DNA of 63,952 nucleotides, counting the filler, from Neolecta irregularis DAH-3 (Eukaryota): assembly GCA_001929475.1 (NCBI GenBank). It is 14 parts of 14 records of this genome, joined end to end, with 100 filler letters (N's around TTAATTAATTAA, not from the genome) between each part and the next. Parts side by side here need not be neighbours in the genome. Positions count along the whole stretch, not along the records: positions 7,055 to 23,742 come from LXFE01000182.1; 13 more parts are not named here. One strand, given 5' to 3'. The notes under the pieces are model-generated. The model did no database searches. It saw only the letters and a program-made list of their open reading frames with translations, and was not told the origin of the DNA. This document shows, in pieces, positions 6,955 through 53,468 of this stretch. Position numbers and translations under genes: made by a program. Each line of letters opens with the position of its first letter. Positions within the stretch are counted from its first letter, which is position 1.

Positions 6955-7054
6955 NNNNNNNNNNNNNNNNNNNNNNNNNNNNNNNNNNNNNNNNNNNNTT
7001 AATTAATTAANNNNNNNNNNNNNNNNNNNNNNNNNNNNNNNNNNNNNNNNNNNN
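6955..7054. other. Artificial contig linker N-TTAATTAATTAA-N (first of 13)
   Basis: Same six-frame-stop 12-mer inside N runs at about 6999, 23787, 25112, 28951, 30187, 32539, 36341, 45338, 47037, 48717, 51894, 61429, 62881. Confidence 0.97.
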
Positions 7055-7589: not shown

Positions 7590-8393
7590 AACACCCTCGC
7601 CTACCCGCCTTGCCTGCCTCTCCTATCTCTCGCGCCTCTTCAGCCTTGCGCACCTGTCTCGCGCCTCGCCAGGCTCTCCCAACTCGTGCTCCTGCCTCGC
7701 CCACCTTACGCTCCTCGCCTTCCTTGTCCCGCCCGCCTTTCCCGTCCCGTCTGTCCCTCCTTCCTCTCCCATCTCTCCCGTCCTCTCCTGTCCCGCCCGT
7801 GCCTCCTCTCCCGTCCCACCTCGCCCATCCCGCGCGTCCAGTCCCGCCTCGCCTACCCTGCGTGTCCCGTCCCCTTTCGTGTGTCCCGCGCTTCCTGTCC
7901 TGCCTCGCCCGTCCTTCCAATCTCGCGCCCCCCTCCCATCTCGAGCTCCTGTCTCGCCCGCCTCATGCCTGCCCATCCCGCCCACTCGTCCTGCCCGCCT
8001 TTCCCAACCCTTCCGTCCCTCCCATCTCGCCAATCTCACCCGCCCGTCTCTCCAGCCCATCCCACCCACCTCACATGCCTCGCCCGCCCATCTCTCCCGC
8101 CTCTCAAACATCACACTATGGATAAGAAAGGGGAATGGAGAGGGACACAAGTACTAGAAAGTATATCATGTAGAAATCTTTATGAACATATCAATTCTTC
8201 GAGTCTGGGAATGATCACTATTCTATAATCTACTACTACAAAAGTCTAGATAGTATCTCAATGTATAACACTTTGGCATCAGAAAGCTCATATTAGGGAA
8301 ATGGTAGTCACATGATATGCATGGACCGTCCATGGATTGGGCCTGACCCTCAGAAAAGCCCATGGGCAGGACTTTGGTTCATCTGCAACACTG
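7590..8393. mobile_element. hAT-like non-autonomous element: C/T-rich low-complexity tract plus terminus CAACACTG
   Basis: CCCGCC/CTCGCC-rich repeat 7590-8105; TCACATGA, CCATGG repeats and CAACACTG at 8386-8393. Confidence 0.45.
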
Positions 8394-8674
8394 CATCATA
8401 TCTGGATGTTTCAAAGAAGCAACAGGCGAATTAGGTTTGTAAAGCAGAATTCAGTCAGCATGTTAGGAATTTAATTTCTATGCTGAATTTCACAGGTTGA
8501 AGATTGGAGCTGTTCCTTAAGAAAGTCTTTACTGCGTTTAAGTGCTCTGAGTGGAAGGTTTATTTGTCCGAGAAGGGTAATGCGCCGCTGTAAGATCAAA
8601 ATCAAGCAGACCTCCAAAAAAGACATCAGACTCCACATCATCTTTGTCTTACATGATCAACATCTTTGCAAAAT

Positions 8675-11600
8675 ATGGACAATTTGATCACTTATATTGT
8701 AAATGAAATAACCTATGAGGGACCAAACGGTAAGCTATTTTCGATTCTTTACCGGTGGTGGTGGAATGGTGCAACAGCGCCCGCTCAATTTGGATTCTCC
8801 ACAAAGAGAACTCTTGCAATAAAGTTCTAGAAGAATTAAAATCTTCTTTGTCGTATTTCGAACCGTTGCCGGAAACTTTGTCCGGGGAAGTACGTTATAT
8901 AGAGAGGGCCGACGGTTCGAATCTTGGGTATGCTTACTTTTCTGTAGGATGTTTGCTTTCGCAACTGTGGTCATTTATATCGAATTACACCGAAAAGCAC
9001 AACCAGGCTAATTCAGTTTGGGACCTTGTTATACAGCATCATCTTGATCACACATCTAGGTTCTGGATGATGCACTCCGAAGTCTCATTTGGAAATATCT
9101 CCTTCAGGAAGATAGTGTTTTGGTCAAAAAGCGAGACCAATCATCTTTATTTGACGTACATGTGCTCGGCGAGATCCAGTTGACCGTATTAGAAAACGAG
9201 CAGTCATGTTTCGAACTATGCCAACTTGATCGGGAAGGATCACGATACGCAGGTTTTAATTGCGGAAGAACGTCGATGGATAATTCTGACCGGCCATGGA
9301 GTCGACCATACCAAGGTAATTTCACAACCTGCAAAAGTGACGAGGGTAATCTGTATAGGTTTCTCCTTTAGCATTTGCTATTCTCGAATGTGCAACCTAT
9401 GGACGTAGCCAGGGAATGCCGCAAACAAAGATTGCAGCTATGACAGGTCAAGAACCTCGAAGCTTTCCTAGCAGAGTTAAAGCTCTTGTACATGCAGGAT
9501 TAATGTACACTACTGAGTCTCTGCTATTTGACTGAAACTCCAGTCGCAAGGAAAAGTGTATTGCGGACGGAGCCAAAACCTTTCGTTTGACACATACGAA
9601 ATTTGCTCCCCCGAAAGCAGTTACAAAGCAGCTAATTGATACTGCCAGAGTAGAGTGTGGCATCATCGAGAAGTTGGGTGTTGCACCAGATCATACCTTG
9701 CCTTACAGGGAAGTCCGGGATAGTCTCGTATGTTCCACTTTTAATCAGTGCTTGACATATATTTTAGGGCTACGAAGGCCCCAAATGGTATCGCGTATTC
9801 GCTGCAAAGATTCGAGAATGGGAAGAGGAACGCCTCGTTCTCCGATATTTTATTGAAGGAGGCAAAAAGCAAATCAGAATTAAATATCTCAGATTAGGAA
9901 TACCTTTTGAGAACGCCCTACACACGATTTTGGAACGCCAACGACGAGGATATACACAAGCTATCTTATCTGACAGCGAAGATGAGAGAGACCTCGGCGA
10001 GGATGACCTTGAGGATGACCTCGACAATGTCAATGATCACATCAAAGTTTTATACGATGATGTTATTCGCGAATTTCCTATTGAAGTACAACTGTTCAAC
10101 TTTATTGCTGCATCTGGAACAGAAACGGTGTCTACTAATGCATGAGGTCTCTTTTCATAAGCCTGTGTAATATTCTAGGATATCATACAACGATTAAATT
10201 TTAACTTTAATCGGCGGAGTGTCGGTCAAACTCTTGAAAGGATGACATTTGATCCGAAAAAACCTCCGATTCCTCAATGCGCAGATCGCGTTTTATTTCG
10301 AGAGATTGACGGTCATGGAAAAACCTCATTTTATCGATATGTTGTGGCTGAACATCACGCGAACTATAGAAAGAGAATCGGTCTTGATTCCAAAGGTGCT
10401 GGAGACCTTCCTTCCGTAGTCGGAGAATTTAGAATTCCTCCGATAAGCTTGCTTCCTCCACAAGAGCCAGTACGGACTATGGACCACGAGTTGAAAGGTT
10501 CCGGAGTGCACGATTATAGCAAACTGACTGATAGTAAAATCAGTCCGAGGAAGACCGCGTAAGACAGTAAAAGCTCTTGATGTGTCTAAAGACTCTCATC
10601 CTCGTTCAGATGGCTTGGAGACTGTTAAGAAGAAGGGTCGTCCTCGCAAACACCTAGAGAGCGAACAGGGTGATGCATTTCTGCAGTCTAGAAAACGAGT
10701 GTTGGCGAAGAATTCGGAAAAAATGTTGCCGTTGCGAAAACGTTTAAAGGTTGGAAGTAAAGAGATAGTGGAGCACTCTGGGGTTGATCCTGATATTCAG
10801 ACTTCTCAAAACACGCAAAATCTCGAAAAGCAAGGTCCTGTTGCAGAACGCAGAAAGGCAGGGGAAAATCCAACGACTGAATCAAAAACGGGAATGCTAA
10901 AGTCATACCTAATAGATTCAAGCGAAATCGTCAATAGCAGGGATTCTACTTGCCATAAAGCCGATAACTTGATGTCGAGGGTTATCGAACGTTCCCGAAT
11001 CAAGTCCCTATCAAAGTGCTATAGTTCTTCGGAAGCCGAATCTTTAACCTTACCTGGTCTTCAAATTCCATTTACCTCGGCTTCCGGGGATCCTTATTCT
11101 GCCATGGTTAGTGATAGTGTCCAATGTCTCGGACATGTTGATAACTGTTGCGATTCTCAGTTCCAGTCTTCACAGGATTTCAGGAATAATTCTGCACAGA
11201 ATCAAAGTACTGATGGGTTTGTATCAAACAGTTACACATCTGTCACTCAACAACAGCTCCAGACAGATCATTTCTCAGAATTACCCAACCTTTCGTTTTC
11301 GACGAATGGTTCCCTGAATGCAACCGCAATGAAGGAGGACTCAATCGCCGATATTTCCTTTGTAGCATCACGAGCTGCTGCCAACCCAGTGTCGATTGAC
11401 CCAGCTCTAATGATGGATGATCCAGCCCCTTTCTTGGAAATATGCAACGAACCTGTTGTTGACATCACCGAGAATACCGGACTTGTCAAAAGCTGCAATC
11501 CAAGAAGTAACAAACTCAGGCACTCAGTTCAAATGATTCATCGACAACAAACGATCAAGGAAATTCTGGACTCCCAAAGCGGTTTAGTTGAAGGAGGGCA

Positions 11601-13993
11601 GAATCTGGAGCAATTGTACAATGCGAATCTTGCATCTAAAACTACCTCTGGAAAGCCTCTTACAATCGATAGACGCACATTAAGATCAACTATTGCAGCC
11701 ATGGTGAATGCCCGAAAAATCAATGAAATCAAATTGTCACTGACCGATGCGAAAGGATGTGAGGTAAAGACCAATCTCATCATTGACAGTAAATATGATG
11801 CCCTCGGGCCCGAGGTTAGTGCCTTTCAAGAGAATCTTCGTGATCTTTATCGAAGAAGAAGATTGCTTATCAAGCCAATGAAGAAAATCCAATGCACCAC
11901 TCAAGAAGCCGTCGCTCAGTTGTCCAGACGGCTACAGAAACGAGCAGAAGCTACAGACGAAAGAGCCAATCAAGCCACTCGAGGTTGTCACCTTGATTCA
12001 GAAGCCCAAATTCGAGCGAGAAAGCTTGTTGCTGAGCAAATGAGAACTTTGGAACAACGACAGAAGGCAGCTGAAGAAGAGACACAACAGTCACGTTTCT
12101 TGCTCTCGAAAATTGATACGATAAATCACAAGATCAAACATACACACAGCGAGAAACTTGAGGAACCTCTAATCCCCGGTCAAATTTCATTCAAGCAAGA
12201 TGAATATCAAAACCTACTCGACCTCGCTTTTGCACCCGTGCCTATTTCGTCTCGACCTTCAGGTGAAATGGAAGCGAAAGGACCGAAAGTCAGAAAGCGA
12301 AGAATGCCAATGCTTTTAGCTTCTGACGTTGTATCACCGGTCAACAGAGTTCCATCACGACGCGCATACCAGGACGAAGCGCAAGAGGAGGCTATCCTGG
12401 ACATGAATGATCCGTCCGTCCTTGACCTCAATGAAATTTGTGAGACATCCTCGGTAGAGCACTCTTGACGTTTGTAGACACAAATGTCCCGCTTCCTAGG
12501 AGACGGCATGTTTACGATGACGAAGAGAACCGATTGATTATTCGCCTAGTAATAGCCGCTCGGTGTCTATTCCAATCACATATCATTAAATGGGATATTG
12601 TCAAGAGAGCTATTCCGGCTCGCGAGCGCAATCAGGTCAAGGTTCGGTGGAGTAATCTTCGCAATCAACCATTGTGGAGAACCTATACCGCCCAACAAGC
12701 AAAGCTGTTCCCAGCTGCCTATAGAAAAGGTCTTCAAGAAGGTATTTTTGTGTCACCTAATTTGGAGGATGAAGAGAGCATTGATCTTCTTCCATATATC
12801 AGCTATCTGGAGGAACTTGAGGCGGAAGGACTTGAAGAGTATATCTCGTAACCCGCTCATTTTCTAATCTGCCAGTGAACTAGATGATCAACTGTCAGTC
12901 TTACCGGAAACTATGGAAATCTTGAAAACTCACTTTGACATAACAAAAATCTCAGCAACCGAGAGTTGGCAAGACAAATACGATGCCCTGCTTCCCTACA
13001 GTCATAGAAAGCAATGCTTCGTTGATCATGCGTTCTATATGGCAATAGATCCAGAGATCGAACCTTCGGTCGATGACAGAGATGTTCAGCGCAAGATCAA
13101 GGTGTTATCACATGTTAGGAAGTCTGAAGGAACTGACTAAAAGTCTATCCTCGCTACTCCCCAACATATCTACGAAAAGGATCTAGCCGCAAAGATTTTA
13201 GAGGGTCATACTACACACGACGTGCAAGATGCTATTGATGCGCTATGTTTACGACGTACAGCCGTTCGAATGAAAGCGAACAGTGGGAGGATTGTTCCTG
13301 GTCGAAACTTTCAGCTATCGGAGCAATTCTTTATTTCTTTGATCCCTCAATGGAACCTGAAATTGTCAACACTTTCCAACTTCCAGCGGCTCATATTGGA
13401 AGCATTCAAGAAAGGACGAGCGAGTATTCCATTTTCACCCTTATCAAACGATAGTACAGTTGCTTCCATTCTGAACCTGGTTGCGTCACGAAAGGTAGCA
13501 CCAATATCTGAAATATATGTACTGATATATAGATTCGAATCCAGCCCGCTGAGGAATTTTTTGAAAATATGGATGCTGCAGACAGTGGATATCAACGTTA
13601 TGGTATAACGACCCTTCGAATCTGACTTACGTCCCAGATCGCGAGCAACATGATTTTGGGGTTGTCATCAAACGCGGAGAGTCATATATCTCGGATGAAG
13701 GAATGTCACAAGACCAGAGCAAGGTCCAGGAAGATCACCATTATGTATGGACAAATCTCGCAAAAGAACGCATCCCTGCGATGTGGAAAAAGGTGGACGA
13801 TCGTGTAATTTCTCTAGTTGTGGGTCATCCTGGAATATCAAAGGCTCGGATCGCCAACCAAGTGTCTGTTTCCCTGGATGGTGCTGAACTAGGTCGAATT
13901 CTTCAAGGAATGCTCGAGCAGAATCGAATATCTTCCCGGGTGATATCAAATAATTCTTATTATTTTTCTACAGAGTTTTGGTATATCTTGTAA
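8675..13993 (+). CDS. TFC3: RNA Pol III transcription factor TFIIIC B-block-binding subunit (Tfc3/Sfc3/tau138), about 13 introns
   Basis: Spliced N-terminus MDNLITYIVNEITYEGPNGCLLSQLWSFI...VLDDALRSLIWKYLL; winged-helix B-block region GRSQGMPQTKIAAMTGQEPRSFPSRVKALVHAGLI; FREIDGHGKTSFYRY; AT-hooks RGRPRK/KGRPRK; C-terminal wHTH (VISLVVGHPGI...FWYIL*). Confidence 0.85.
8759..8924 (+). promoter_or_regulatory. Pol III A box and paired inverted B boxes inside TFC3 intron 1
   Basis: A box TGGTGGAATGG 8759-8769; B box GGTTCGAATCT 8914-8924; opposite-strand GGTTCGAAATA 8854-8864; all within intron 8730-8947. Confidence 0.6.
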
Positions 13994-14301
13994 TTAAATA
14001 GGCCATGGGCCCATGATAGAATGAGGAATGCAACATATTTTCATATCCCGATTGTTTCTCAGAACCTCGACGATGAGAGCCAAGTTGAATCAATACTCAA
14101 CTTCCTATTGGAGAATATTATTGAAGGTGCTCCAGTAAAATTCCGTGGTGTAGTAGCATGATTGCTCGTGCTGAAGTTAAGATTTATATAAGAAACATTA
14201 AACGAGAGATAAAACAAAACACTTTTCTATATTCAAGTTTCCTATCACAATTAACTCCATAAGTCTTATTAGTACACAGAAACCCTAGATTACTTATATG
14301 G

Positions 14302-21637: not shown

Positions 21638-23032
21638 ATGGTCAAAGACACAAAGGTACTCCTGCGTCCTCTTTTCCAGACTTCTTTGTCTAATTGCCAG
21701 TACTACGACAACCTGGGTATCTCGCCTGGCGCCTCTGATACCGACATCAAAAAGGCCTATCGTAAATTGGCCTTGAAATACCATCCTGACAAGGCACCCT
21801 TACCTCCTTTGGATCACCGTTTCTGATCCTTGCAGAACCCTGATGATCCCCACAAATTCAAGGAAATTTCTCACGCTTACGAAATCCTCTCAGACCCGGA
21901 GAAGCGCTCACTCTACGATCAGTATGGTGAGGACGGCCTTTCCAACAAAGGCGGCATGGGTGGCATGGATGCCGAGGACCTCTTTGCCCAATTCTTTGGT
22001 GGAGGCTTCCACGGCACTAGAAATCGCGGCCCACCTCGTGGCAAAGATCTCGTTCACCCCATAAAAGTCACCCTCGAAGATCTGTATAGGGGTAAAGTCT
22101 CAAAATTGGCCCTGCAAAAGAATGTCATCTGCAAGACTTGCGATGGAAGAGGCGCGAAAGAGGGTTGTGTGAAGAAATGCGCTCACTGTGGCGGAAACGG
22201 CGTCAAAATTGTTCATCGACAACTCGGCCCAATGATCCAGAGAGTTCAGATGCAATGTCAAGACTGCGAAGCTTCAGGCGAGGTCATCGCCAATAAAGAT
22301 CGTTGTAAAACCTGTCATGCAAAGAAAGTTGTCTCTGAAAGAAAAATTCTCGAGGTTTTCTTTTGCCTACTTTTGCTCTGCTTTGCTGAATAATATAGGT
22401 CCATATCGACAAGGGTATGTCTGCAAGCGCGCAGGTTCGATTCCAGGGAGAAGGAGATCAAGCACCTGGTCTCATTCCTGGCGATGTCATCTTTGTTCTC
22501 GATGTCGCCCCTCATCCTCGTTTCACTCGCAAAAACGACGATCTTTTCTATGTTGCAAAGATCGATCTTCTGACTGCTCTTGCAGGTGGAGAGATTTATA
22601 TTGAGCATCTTGATGAGCGCTGGTTAAGGATTCCTATTCTCGCCGGCGAAGCAATCAAACCTGGTGAAATCAAAGTTGTTGAATTTGAAGGAATGCCGGT
22701 TCAGCGGCATCATAATAATGGGCAATTATATATTCGGTTTGACGTCGAATTTCCTGAGTTCGGCCCCTTCTTCCAGTACAACACTAACTGGGGATAGTCC
22801 ATATTGGACCAAAACTCAAACAATTTCCCTTCTGGAATCCATCCTGCCTCCGCGAAAGACCGACATCCATCTCCCACCTAAAAAAGCGGTTGTCGATGAA
22901 GTTGTTCTGGGTAATGTCGATCCCATGCAACAAGCCCGGGCAAGGGGTGCTGCAAATGGCGATAGTAAAATGGATGTTGATGATGGTGATGAAGAAGGTG
23001 GACAACCAGGTGTTCAATGCGCCCAAAGTTAA
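21638..23032 (+). CDS. YDJ1: Type I DnaJ/Hsp40 chaperone Ydj1/Mas5, 4 introns
   Basis: J domain KYHPDK, G/F region, four zinc-finger repeats ([32 protein letters not shown]), CaaX tail CAQS*. Confidence 0.96.
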
Positions 23033-23842
23033 CTGGTGTATGCCGTTGACAATGGCGATAAAGGCGGGCAGCCAGGGGTTCAATTTGCTCAAAGTTAAAC
23101 TTTTGTTTTTCTTTCTTTTGATGGGTTGTTCGGCGATGATAGAAATGGCTTGACTTGCAAATATATATCAAATAGAGTTTTGCTCCTTCCTCACCCCAGC
23201 CTGCTATATAATACATTTCTAGTTCTTCGCCAAGGTTACTCAGAGTAAAGGTGTTGCATCAACAGCGTAGCTTCCCCTCCCTTTATGGGCGACAAAACAG
23301 CGACATCAGTGCTTGACTCTAAATTATTTCATCATCGCAACCTTTCTTTTTCCCATTGACAAATCCATAGTTTCTTTTTCAAAAACACAGATCATGTAAC
23401 TGAATTGGATATACCAATTAAACCACACAATCCAAGCTTCCATAAAAAAAAACAACCCCACAATCACAAGAGTAAGCCCCATCGAGTTTTAAAACTGCAT
23501 GACTATCACTCAGGACGAAAAAGGCCGCCCCAAGGGATGCTCATCTCTTTGCGTGCAAGGGGAGGACAAGCCGTTTTTACACGGCAGTCTTGGGACTACT
23601 ATATGTCCGGGGACTTTCCCCCGAGCTTTCTTCAAATTTTCCCTCCGAAATTGGGGGAAAAAAGCGTGGGTATGCTCGGATGCAGTCCTTTGTGTTTGTG
23701 ATGGGTGTTAAGTGGAAGAAGTTTTCAACATGCCTGTTGTTANNNNNNNNNNNNNNNNNNNNNNNNNNNNNNNNNNNNNNNNNNNNTTAATTAATTAANN
23801 NNNNNNNNNNNNNNNNNNNNNNNNNNNNNNNNNNNNNNNNNN

Positions 23843-35840: not shown

Positions 35841-36190
35841 AAATATCTCAATATCACCAAAAATTGCAATAAGTGGGTCAATCTTGTGGCTGGCAAACGC
35901 ACCCTGATTTGGAATATCTTGATATCGCCGAATATTGCAATAAGTGGGTCAATCTTGTGGCTGGCGAACGCACCCTCAGTTATTTGCTCTTTCCGTAGTA
36001 ATTTCGAACCACATGCCCACATTCAGACACATCGGGGTGGAAGAAGAGTCAGCCATTTGCTCTTACGCATTTGCGAGCTGCATTCAGAAGCAAAAATGAC
36101 TGTCATTTGCTCTTTCCGTAATAATTTCGAACCACATGCCCACATTCAGACACATCCGGGTGGAGAAGAGTCAGCCATTTGCTCTTCCGT
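35841..36190. repeat. Tandem ~66-nt units followed by tandem ~118-nt units
   Basis: TTGCAATAAGTGGGTCAATCTTGTGGCTGGC..ACGCACCCT twice (also at contig starts 30243 and 32595); ATTTGCTCTTTCCGTA...CACATTCAGACACATC twice. Confidence 0.85.
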
Positions 36191-36396
36191 ATTTGCCAAA
36201 TTTTCTAAAAAACTATTTAACCGTGAGGTGCCCGTTCTGACTCTGAATCGTTCCCAACTTATCACAAATCATGTTATCGATTTTGCTTTTCATCGCNNNN
36301 NNNNNNNNNNNNNNNNNNNNNNNNNNNNNNNNNNNNNNNNTTAATTAATTAANNNNNNNNNNNNNNNNNNNNNNNNNNNNNNNNNNNNNNNNNNNN

Positions 36397-40925: not shown

Positions 40926-41053
40926 GGTTCGGTGGTGTAGTGGCTATCACGACTCGTTTACAGTCACGCAGTAATGCACTATCTGAGCGTTGGTCACAAT
41001 CCTCAGGTATTTAGACACCGAGTCGGTCCCGGGTTCAAACCCCGGTCGAACCT
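40926..41053 (+). tRNA. tRNA-Val(TAC) with 55-nt intron (40963-41017)
   Basis: Acceptor GGTTCGG/TCGAACC, A box TGGTGTAGTGG, anticodon stem ACTCG/CGAGT, loop TT-TAC-A, T arm GGTTCAAAC, T-run terminator. Confidence 0.9.
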
Positions 41054-53371: not shown

Positions 53372-53468
53372 TGCTAACTGCAGGGTTCGAACCTGCGCCC
53401 ATTTCTGGAATGCCATGCCCGGATAAGGAGCCTGAAGACATCGGATTAGACCACTCTCCCAAGTTAGC
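53372..53468 (-). tRNA. tRNA-Leu(CAG) with short intron
   Basis: GCTAACT/AGTTAGC acceptor, discriminator A, D loop AGTGGTCTAA, TT-CAG-G loop, long variable arm, GGTTCGAACCC. Confidence 0.9.

Follow-up and report, generated by a model that had tools for sequence, protein, structure and literature searches.

Introduction

TFIIIC is a DNA-binding factor that sets tRNA and 5S output and organises chromatin, and control of its own level is known for TFC6 alone, in one yeast. In Saccharomyces cerevisiae, the TFC6 promoter contains a B box, ETC6, that acts as a repressive element and lowers TBP occupancy and TFC6 mRNA about twofold (Kleinschmidt et al., 2011, as described in PMC3334521). Here we analyse 63,952 nt of DNA from Neolecta irregularis DAH-3 (the whole stretch, filler included, is called the window), which carries the orthologue of Tfc3/tau138/sfc3, the subunit of TFIIIC that binds B boxes. 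Intron 1 of this gene contains a B box, GGTTCGAATCT (8914–8924, plus strand), which, judged by its counterparts in relatives, is probably an ETC-like B-box-only TFIIIC site in the gene for the B-box-binding subunit itself, giving feedback. As in the case of ETC6, a B-box-only TFIIIC site in the 5′ region of a tauB subunit gene is proposed to mediate negative autoregulation. In contrast to ETC6, the gene is TFC3/sfc3 rather than TFC6, the site is in intron 1 (about +240 from the ATG), binding and repression are only predicted, and among the relatives no conserved extension past the core is seen.

Several other systems resemble this arrangement in part. The ETC sites of S. cerevisiae and the COC sites of S. 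pombe match the B-box consensus without a Pol III (RNA polymerase III) gene and are conserved between species; they lie mostly in divergent intergenic regions, and those of S. cerevisiae have a conserved 10-base 3′ extension (Moqtaderi and Struhl, 2004; Noma et al., 2006; both as cited in PMC3395662). The Tfc3 site is likewise a B box without a Pol III gene, conserved among relatives, but it is tied to the 5′ end of one gene and can be intronic. ZOD1 and RNA170/ETC5 are ancient tRNA-gene relics that are weakly transcribed by Pol III (PMC5356446). The Tfc3 sites resemble them in having a B box away from any recognisable tRNA, in some cases followed by a T run, and differ in that neither an A box nor a trace of a tRNA can be detected at the window site or at those of the relatives. 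The first intron of mammalian Polr3e contains an antisense MIR, a tRNA-derived short interspersed nuclear element (SINE), which Pol III occupies and transcribes and which reduces expression of the host gene during elongation (PMC5358760). Both cases concern a conserved element recognised by the Pol III machinery in the first intron of a Pol III-machinery gene, but the MIR is a full antisense Pol III unit, whereas Tfc3 has a lone sense B box and no tRNA-like body. Plant TFIIIA is regulated by a 5S-rRNA-mimic exon, at the level of RNA splicing, via a structured mimic. For Tfc3, too, we propose that the gene for a Pol III factor is controlled by a copy of the motif that the factor recognises, although neither an RNA structure nor a mimic is supported in its intron 1. 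A TFIIIC site that regulates a TFIIIC or Pol III gene is of a known kind; what appear to be new are TFC3/sfc3 as the gene, the breadth of conservation and the recurrent moves of the site from promoter to first intron or back. The full-text literature, with subscription-only papers and supplementary files outside reach, yielded no description of a B box at TFC3/sfc3.

Results

A B box accompanies the 5′ end of Tfc3 in relatives

The window site is probably the local version of an element found at the 5′ end of ascomycete Tfc3 genes, usually 50–150 nt upstream of the ATG, which in several independent lineages, the window gene apparently among them, sits in the conserved first intron instead. No close relative of the gene was found in the protein databases, where word-based searches returned solely its own protein. 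An exhaustive HMMER scan with residues 1–428 as the query gave 526 hits at E≤1e-3, the nearest with about 30% identity. The N-termini of these hits share the motif E-I/L-A-x-x-G-x-x-G-x(5)-LW, the second Gly of which is split by intron 1 of the window gene. Since an initial 41-sequence alignment was too diverse for finding loci, we used the peptide pattern [GD]QD[KN]RS[VL]PK, derived from a 15-sequence alignment of one well-populated subgroup; sampling in this way is blind to B boxes. The pattern fetched 71 metagenome loci encoding Tfc3 relatives, which form 49 clusters at 90% identity or more, and which look like filamentous ascomycetes on the basis of protein similarity and intron signals. 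A small hidden Markov model of the exon 1 peptide located this exon in 60 loci, which belong to 40 clusters, and counts were made on the 37 clusters having at least 150 nt upstream of the ATG, the scored stretch being −150 to −50. Nine clusters without a detectable exon 1 and three with less than 150 nt upstream were left out of the counts; left-out clusters L008 and L069 show a B box at −116 and −89, respectively.

B-box motifs are far more frequent in the scored stretch than in the background. Under a strict definition (no more than one mismatch to GGTTCGANTCC, or an exact GTTCGANTC), hits were obtained in 19/37 clusters compared with a background of 31 hits in 298,984 nt, or about 0.01 per scored stretch (binomial P 3e-28). 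The motif GTTCGANTC taken singly occurs in 18/37 (background 16 hits in 293,605 nt; P 3e-31), and the loose core GTTCRANNC in 30/37, against 87 background hits in the same 293,605 nt, or about 0.03 per stretch (P 1e-39). Most of the upstream GTTCRANNC hits (30/33) are on the strand of the gene, as in the window. When the sites are aligned on the motif, core columns reach 2.0 bits and the flanks 0–0.8 bits, with one column at 1.2; columns 3′ of the core, in 18 anchored sites, have 0.4–0.8 bits.

The seven clusters that lack an upstream core carry the motif elsewhere. In six of them (L009, L025, L028, L029, L044 and L061) GTTCRANNC is present in intron 1, and in the remaining cluster, L043, that intron bears GATTCGAATCC, a near-consensus palindrome, at 20 nt from its start, so that the conservation in relatives to which the original prediction had looked is found throughout the counted sample. 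An intronic core accompanies the upstream one in only 4/30 clusters (Fisher P 5.6e-4). Among delimited introns, 4/24 contain the strict motif, compared with 0.51 hits expected in 4,941 nt (P 0.002). The intron-only state requires five changes on a maximum-likelihood tree of the B-block region, of which at least three are forced by well-supported branches. By its sequence the window gene falls in this intronic class, having no GTTCRANNC core upstream of its ATG and exactly one core, in intron 1 and in the sense orientation. These distributions are best read as selection keeping a B box at the Tfc3 5′ end, whatever its exact place.

The Tfc3/sfc3 gene and its first intron

The gene lies on the plus strand at 8675–14161, the 3′ end being that of the deposited 1588-aa model. 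The exon at 9359–9502 matches the Pfam family B-block_TFIIIC above cut-off (E 5e-8), the C-terminal exons match DUF6581, and the large exon shows a weak match to extended winged-helix (eWH) families. The large exon is also 100% identical to the 1588-aa protein P0001, named ‘Transcription factor tau subunit sfc3 [Neolecta irregularis DAH-3]’. The Pfam match and the name agree with the original assignment of the gene to the B-box-binding subunit of TFIIIC. Exon 1 (8675–8729) starts at the ATG at 8675, consists of 18 codons plus 1 nt and translates as in P0001, while exon 2 (8948–9015) carries the conserved N-terminal motif onwards as far as LW.

Intron 1 (8730–8947) is a genuine spliced spliceosomal intron. 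It has the form GTAAGC...GCTTAC...TAG, with GT at 8730 and AG ending at 8947, and interrupts a Gly codon in phase 1. Contigs of the sequencing run X2, placed along 8300–14100, join 8729 to 8948 and omit exactly these 218 nt; the same junction is present in P0001, and it restores the reading frame. X2 contigs also skip eleven other short introns of the gene. Run X2 is labelled ‘DNA?’, and its cDNA-like nature is our own reading, made because all of the listed joints in this gene are canonical introns and because, in the eight bins with introns from 9728 on, depth equals contig depth multiplied by the exonic fraction. From the X2 joints and the model, the intron lengths are 218 nt, then 44, 37, 43, 39, 40, 39, 37, 38, 37, 42, 38 and 35 nt, so that intron 1 is indeed the long outlier originally described, at about 5.5 times the local norm of around 40 nt. 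A coding role for the 218 nt was considered and rejected. Read upstream in the frame of exon 2, the intron stays open as far as 8734, for which (71 codons) we estimate a chance of about 3%, but it offers no ATG, and both the cDNA joint and the deposited model skip the intron.

An intron at this position is a constant feature of the relatives. In all 24 clusters where exon 2 could be placed, a phase-1 intron splits the homologous Gly codon (G|GT...AG|G), as in the window gene. It measures 71–280 nt in 23 representative introns, with a median of 209.5 nt over 24 when the window gene is included, and about 490 nt in one further delimited cluster; introns of such fungi are mostly 50–70 nt. In L021, the remainder of the gene is a single open frame of 1941 aa. 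We take the intron of S. cerevisiae TFC3 to be at the same codon and phase, and intron 1 of Tfc3 presumably belongs to the small set of introns that budding yeast has kept. In S. cerevisiae, the intron of TFC3 has a non-productive alternative 3′ splice site, the product of which makes up 27% of spliced product and is degraded by nonsense-mediated decay (PMC3983031). The 24 orthologous introns share no universal motif, only lineage-specific blocks. One such block, AGACCCACTTT(N)CTCA, occurs approximately 25–45 nt into the otherwise diverged intron 1 of three related genes (L002, L003/L004 and L008), where something beyond the B box may be conserved.

Motifs inside intron 1

The B box at 8914–8924 is about 240 nt past the ATG and 24–34 nt ahead of the 3′ splice site, with its core, GTTCGAATC, at 8915–8923. 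The consensus of the B box is GGTTCGANTCC, in which G53, T54, T55, C56, A58 and C61 are invariant. Compared with it, GGTTCGAATCT has one mismatch, at position 62; the invariant positions are kept and the core is intact. An identical 11-mer is found upstream of the ATG in L012, L018, L034 and L069. This candidate tauB-binding site is the one good B box of the intron, and lies where the original prediction had placed it.

Other elements of that prediction fared less well. The proposed second B box on the opposite strand, GGTTCGAAATA (8854–8864, minus strand), has three mismatches to the consensus, lacks C61 and does not match even the loose core GTTCRANNC; it is probably not a B box. The two sequences had been described as a 12-bp inverted repeat. 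Arms of 10 bp (8857–8866 and 8912–8921, spanning 8857–8921) are perfect, around the palindromic TTCGAA, but at 12 bp there is one mismatch. A perfect inverted repeat of at least 10 bp arises in 36/2000 dinucleotide shuffles of the intron (1.8%), and the palindromic TTCGAA makes its chance occurrence easier. The A-box-like TGGTGGAATGG is present at 8759–8769 (plus strand), but we judge it a chance match, since the pattern is common in the window (20 matches compared with 11.5 expected) and stands beside the relatives' B boxes in only 2/27 cases. The small hairpins AGAACT/AGTTCT, AGAAGA/TCTTCT and CCGGA/TCCGG exist as described.

Some relatives have B boxes that are paired or palindromic. L014 has two B-box-like motifs 23 nt apart, GGTTTGATTCC and GGTTCGACTCC (noted for the upstream region of L014/L037), and the fully palindromic B boxes GGTTCGAACC and GGATTCGAATCC are found in L027 at −75 and in L043 at +20 of the intron. 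By sequence, these forms are reminiscent of the inverted partial copy in the window.

Other matches to GGTTCGAA occur in the window at 22434, in a coding region, at 36003 and 36126, in a tandem repeat, and within real tRNAs. The repeat (approximately 35990–36240, minus strand) has units of about 123 bp with GGTTCGAA in each, adjoins N runs and is unrelated to tRNA.

Is the element part of a tRNA-like or Pol III-transcribed unit?

The intron had been put forward as a tRNA mimic, a suggestion that the searches lead us to abandon. ARAGORN found no tRNA in the window, and the region 8500–9200 gave no Rfam hit at gathering score and, at E≤10, no tRNA, only four noise hits. Around 8914–8924 only 2/5 T-stem pairs can form, as determined by hand. 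We reject a cloverleaf or T-arm at the B box on these three negative results. A multi-copy tRNA-derived SINE is rejected as well. No second copy of intron 1 was found within the 64-kb window, and in the genomic run X1 a contig covers 8678–9260 unbroken at a depth of 350, compared with about 440 elsewhere in the gene, which is the single-copy level. Neither of the ordinary identities named originally, a SINE or a known non-coding RNA, applies to the intron, given the lack of a second window copy, the single-copy-level depth and the absence of an Rfam family. No C/D-box motifs of a small nucleolar RNA were seen by eye in intron 1.

A less literal version of this idea is that the B box is part of a Pol III unit of ancient tRNA origin, still active or in decay, that it recruits the complete Pol III machinery, and that interference with the host gene comes from Pol III transcription and not from TFIIIC by itself. 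The A-box-like match lies 155 nt upstream of the window B box, a TTTT follows 13 nt past the box and there is no TTTT from 8743 to 8936. In the relatives, runs of four or more T residues lie within 45 nt downstream of the B box in 17/27 cases, compared with 10% in the background, often at +31 to +40, and there are precedents in the Polr3e MIR (PMC5358760) and in ZOD1/RNA170 (PMC5356446). However, no cloverleaf was found, and neither ARAGORN nor Rfam reported a tRNA at the relatives' sites (0 in 71 loci and 0 hits in 16 loci, 139 kb, respectively), just as at the window site. A-box-like matches 15–110 nt upstream of the relatives' B box are at background (2/27 compared with 3.5%), and the A-box pattern is frequent in the window. 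The T runs could equally be pyrimidine tracts of the Pol II core promoter or, in the window, of the 3′ splice site; in the relatives they may represent such core-promoter tracts or terminator-like remnants. Finally, on a rough reading, X2 binned depth over intron 1 is no higher than over its flanks. Overall we regard a Pol III unit as unlikely.

Possible partial retention and the question of an RNA-level element

In run X2, binned depth is 8.5 over 8688–8881 and 12.2 over 8882–9075; these values exceed what the contig with the spliced joint, at a depth of 4.8, and that of exon 2, at 19.1, can supply, and some X2 contig therefore appears to cover the intron. Eight other introns checked in the same way are without cover. 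This binned depth suggests partial retention of intron 1. Retained intron 1 would lead to a stop at 8828–8830. The putative branch site, GCTTAC followed by TTTT (8931–8940, plus strand), begins 7 nt past the B box and differs from the TGAC-type branch sites of the other introns of the gene; on sequence comparison it looks suboptimal, and inefficient splicing could come from this branch site alone.

An RNA-level alternative is that a fold of the intron 1 RNA, tRNA-like or other, is a target for TFIIIC, La, RNase P or a similar factor and regulates splicing, much like the 5S-mimic exon of plant TFIIIA; the original prediction had offered RNA structure as one of its two mechanisms. The 10-bp inverted repeat is mildly unusual (1.8% of shuffles), and the cover of intron 1 alone among the introns checked, with its premature stop, would fit such an element. 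The RNA itself gives little encouragement: there is no tRNA-like fold, and the minimum free energy of −60.7 kcal/mol (z −1.39) is no better than that of shuffled sequences, 17/200 of which fold as well. The minimum free energy fold leaves the B-box inverted repeat unused. A structural switch is unsupported on these grounds, and we do not retain the proposal that RNA structure governs splicing. Furthermore, the 24 orthologous introns have no common motif beyond lineage-specific blocks, the B box of most relatives is upstream of the ATG and so need not be in spliced-out RNA, and TFIIIC binds DNA. An RNA-level element is accordingly very improbable.

A model for feedback on TFIIIC level

If GGTTCGAATCT is an ETC-like site, a simple mechanism can be proposed. 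When free TFIIIC is plentiful, tauB (Tfc3 plus Tfc6) would occupy the site and the Pol II output of Tfc3 would be lowered. At upstream sites this would occur by occlusion of the core promoter; with a T/C-rich tract about 35 nt downstream, these sites seem suitably located for competition with the Pol II pre-initiation complex. Promoter occlusion is excluded for the window site because it lies inside intron 1, and, at about 240 nt past the ATG, it could act only on elongating Pol II, for which an elongation roadblock is plausible by analogy. Promoter and intronic sites alike would result in negative feedback on the TFIIIC level, and stalled elongating Pol II could add to the unspliced RNA that X2 suggests. 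This mechanism has no role for the A box, the B-box-like second copy, the hairpins or any tRNA-like RNA. Of the original feedback loop, what survives is the idea of a TFIIIC site in the gene for the B-box-binding subunit, supported by the B-box core kept in relatives; the A box, the second B box, the tRNA mimic and the RNA switch fall away.

A number of points weigh against this model. In the window, GTTCRANNC is at chance level (16 matches, 16.9 expected), and about 0.1 match is expected in the 423-nt 5′ region, making the motif statistically weak in the window alone. Occupancy of the Tfc3 B boxes by TFIIIC is inferred from the sequence of the sites, and repression as the direction of regulation is taken only from the precedents of ETC6/TFC6 and the Polr3e MIR. 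The T runs downstream of the relatives' B boxes could mean a Pol III unit or relic instead of a TFIIIC-only site. Some intron ends in the relatives were taken from tblastn starts and are not delimited. The use of one retrieval pattern means that the relatives sample one part of the fungi, and their shared ancestry means that the binomial P values overstate independence, although unalignable flanks and long branches indicate that the sample of clusters is nevertheless deep. Lastly, intron 1 is also long in lineages with an upstream B box, and so the B box does not explain its length.

Some of these points would also fit a chance motif without function in N. irregularis, in an intron that is long for another reason, such as other regulatory DNA or its being old and weakly spliced. 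The window has about as many motif matches as chance predicts, or nearly so, the relatives' first introns are long wherever the B box lies, and the fold z-score is only −1.39. Even GGTTCRANYCY, with five matches compared with 1.09 expected, has three of these inside two tRNA genes. Within the window alone the motifs are only suggestive, and their significance rests on the relatives. Against chance, a B-box-like element is present in the 5′ region of 37/37 relatives, and the window gene has none upstream and a single one in intron 1, which is in the usual orientation and has an 11-mer identical to that of four relatives. The strict core GTTCGANTC, moreover, occurs just twice in 64 kb. We consider a chance match improbable.

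A TFIIIC-bound site could also serve chromatin or genome organisation, as a boundary, an insulator or a tether to the nuclear periphery, with no feedback on Tfc3. ETC sites have the same B-box-only architecture and are described as acting as insulators and tethering loci to the nuclear periphery (PMC3395662). A generic boundary, however, is not expected to track one gene in 37/37 lineages, nor to move between promoter and intron 1 within about 400 nt of the ATG while remaining mostly on the strand of the gene. This role on its own seems to us quite unlikely.

The feedback model, which we continue to favour, has wider implications. A B box at the Tfc3 5′ end in 37 diverged lineages, moved yet never lost, suggests that TFIIIC self-regulation is old and general. 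The 9-bp core is a simple mutable target in model moulds, and the natural promoter and intron versions let promoter occlusion be compared with an elongation roadblock. A more far-reaching possibility, which we regard as doubtful, is that the lone B box, kept no more than a few hundred bases from the Tfc3 start codon, is an ancient TFIIIC ‘self-sensor’ of ascomycetes that has moved repeatedly between promoter and intron 1. TFIIIC bound to the intronic site would then stall Pol II shortly before the 3′ splice site, so that termination at the roadblock, or retention of the intron with its premature stop, would depend on the level of TFIIIC, and the long intron of fixed phase may persist as part of the control.

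Additional features of the gene and the window

Several observations concern the gene model and its flanks. At 9459 and 9481 the window has G and A, whereas both runs X1 and X2 give A and T. X2 contigs join 10139 to 10179, corresponding to a 39-nt intron with GC..AG ends; the deposited protein would instead require the GT at 10128 as donor, and the deposited model may miss four residues in this region (10128–10178). At the 3′ end, coverage by the X2 contig ends at 13940, the model as deposited runs through one more intron to 14161 and an in-frame stop at 13991–13993 would give an earlier protein end, leaving the 3′ end of the model uncertain. The 5′ leader has an indel variant, as 8623–8668 is swapped for three letters in one X1 contig (depth 164, compared with 340 for the reference form). 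An 889-nt X1 contig, which we cannot explain, has only 8678–8718 of exon 1 in common with the window and then diverges. Upstream of sfc3, at approximately 8328–8376, is a short multi-copy element with a summed contig depth of 2850 in X1 (the gene being at about 440) and 203 in X2, and with many loose contig ends on both sides. It contains a palindromic GCCCATGGGC-like motif that recurs near the 3′ end of the gene, at 14003.

Elsewhere, the window has 34 N runs (for example 6955–7054 and 23743–23842), with 1224 N in short paired runs that represent masked parts or gaps. An RNase MRP RNA gene lies at 23460–23700 on the minus strand (Rfam RF00030, 88.8 bits compared with a gathering score of 50). 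The two tRNA genes of the window, at 40926–41053 (plus strand) and 53372–53468 (minus strand), have long introns and measure 128 and 97 nt in all; both were missed by ARAGORN and are recognised by Rfam with 44.5 and 42.9 bits, respectively.

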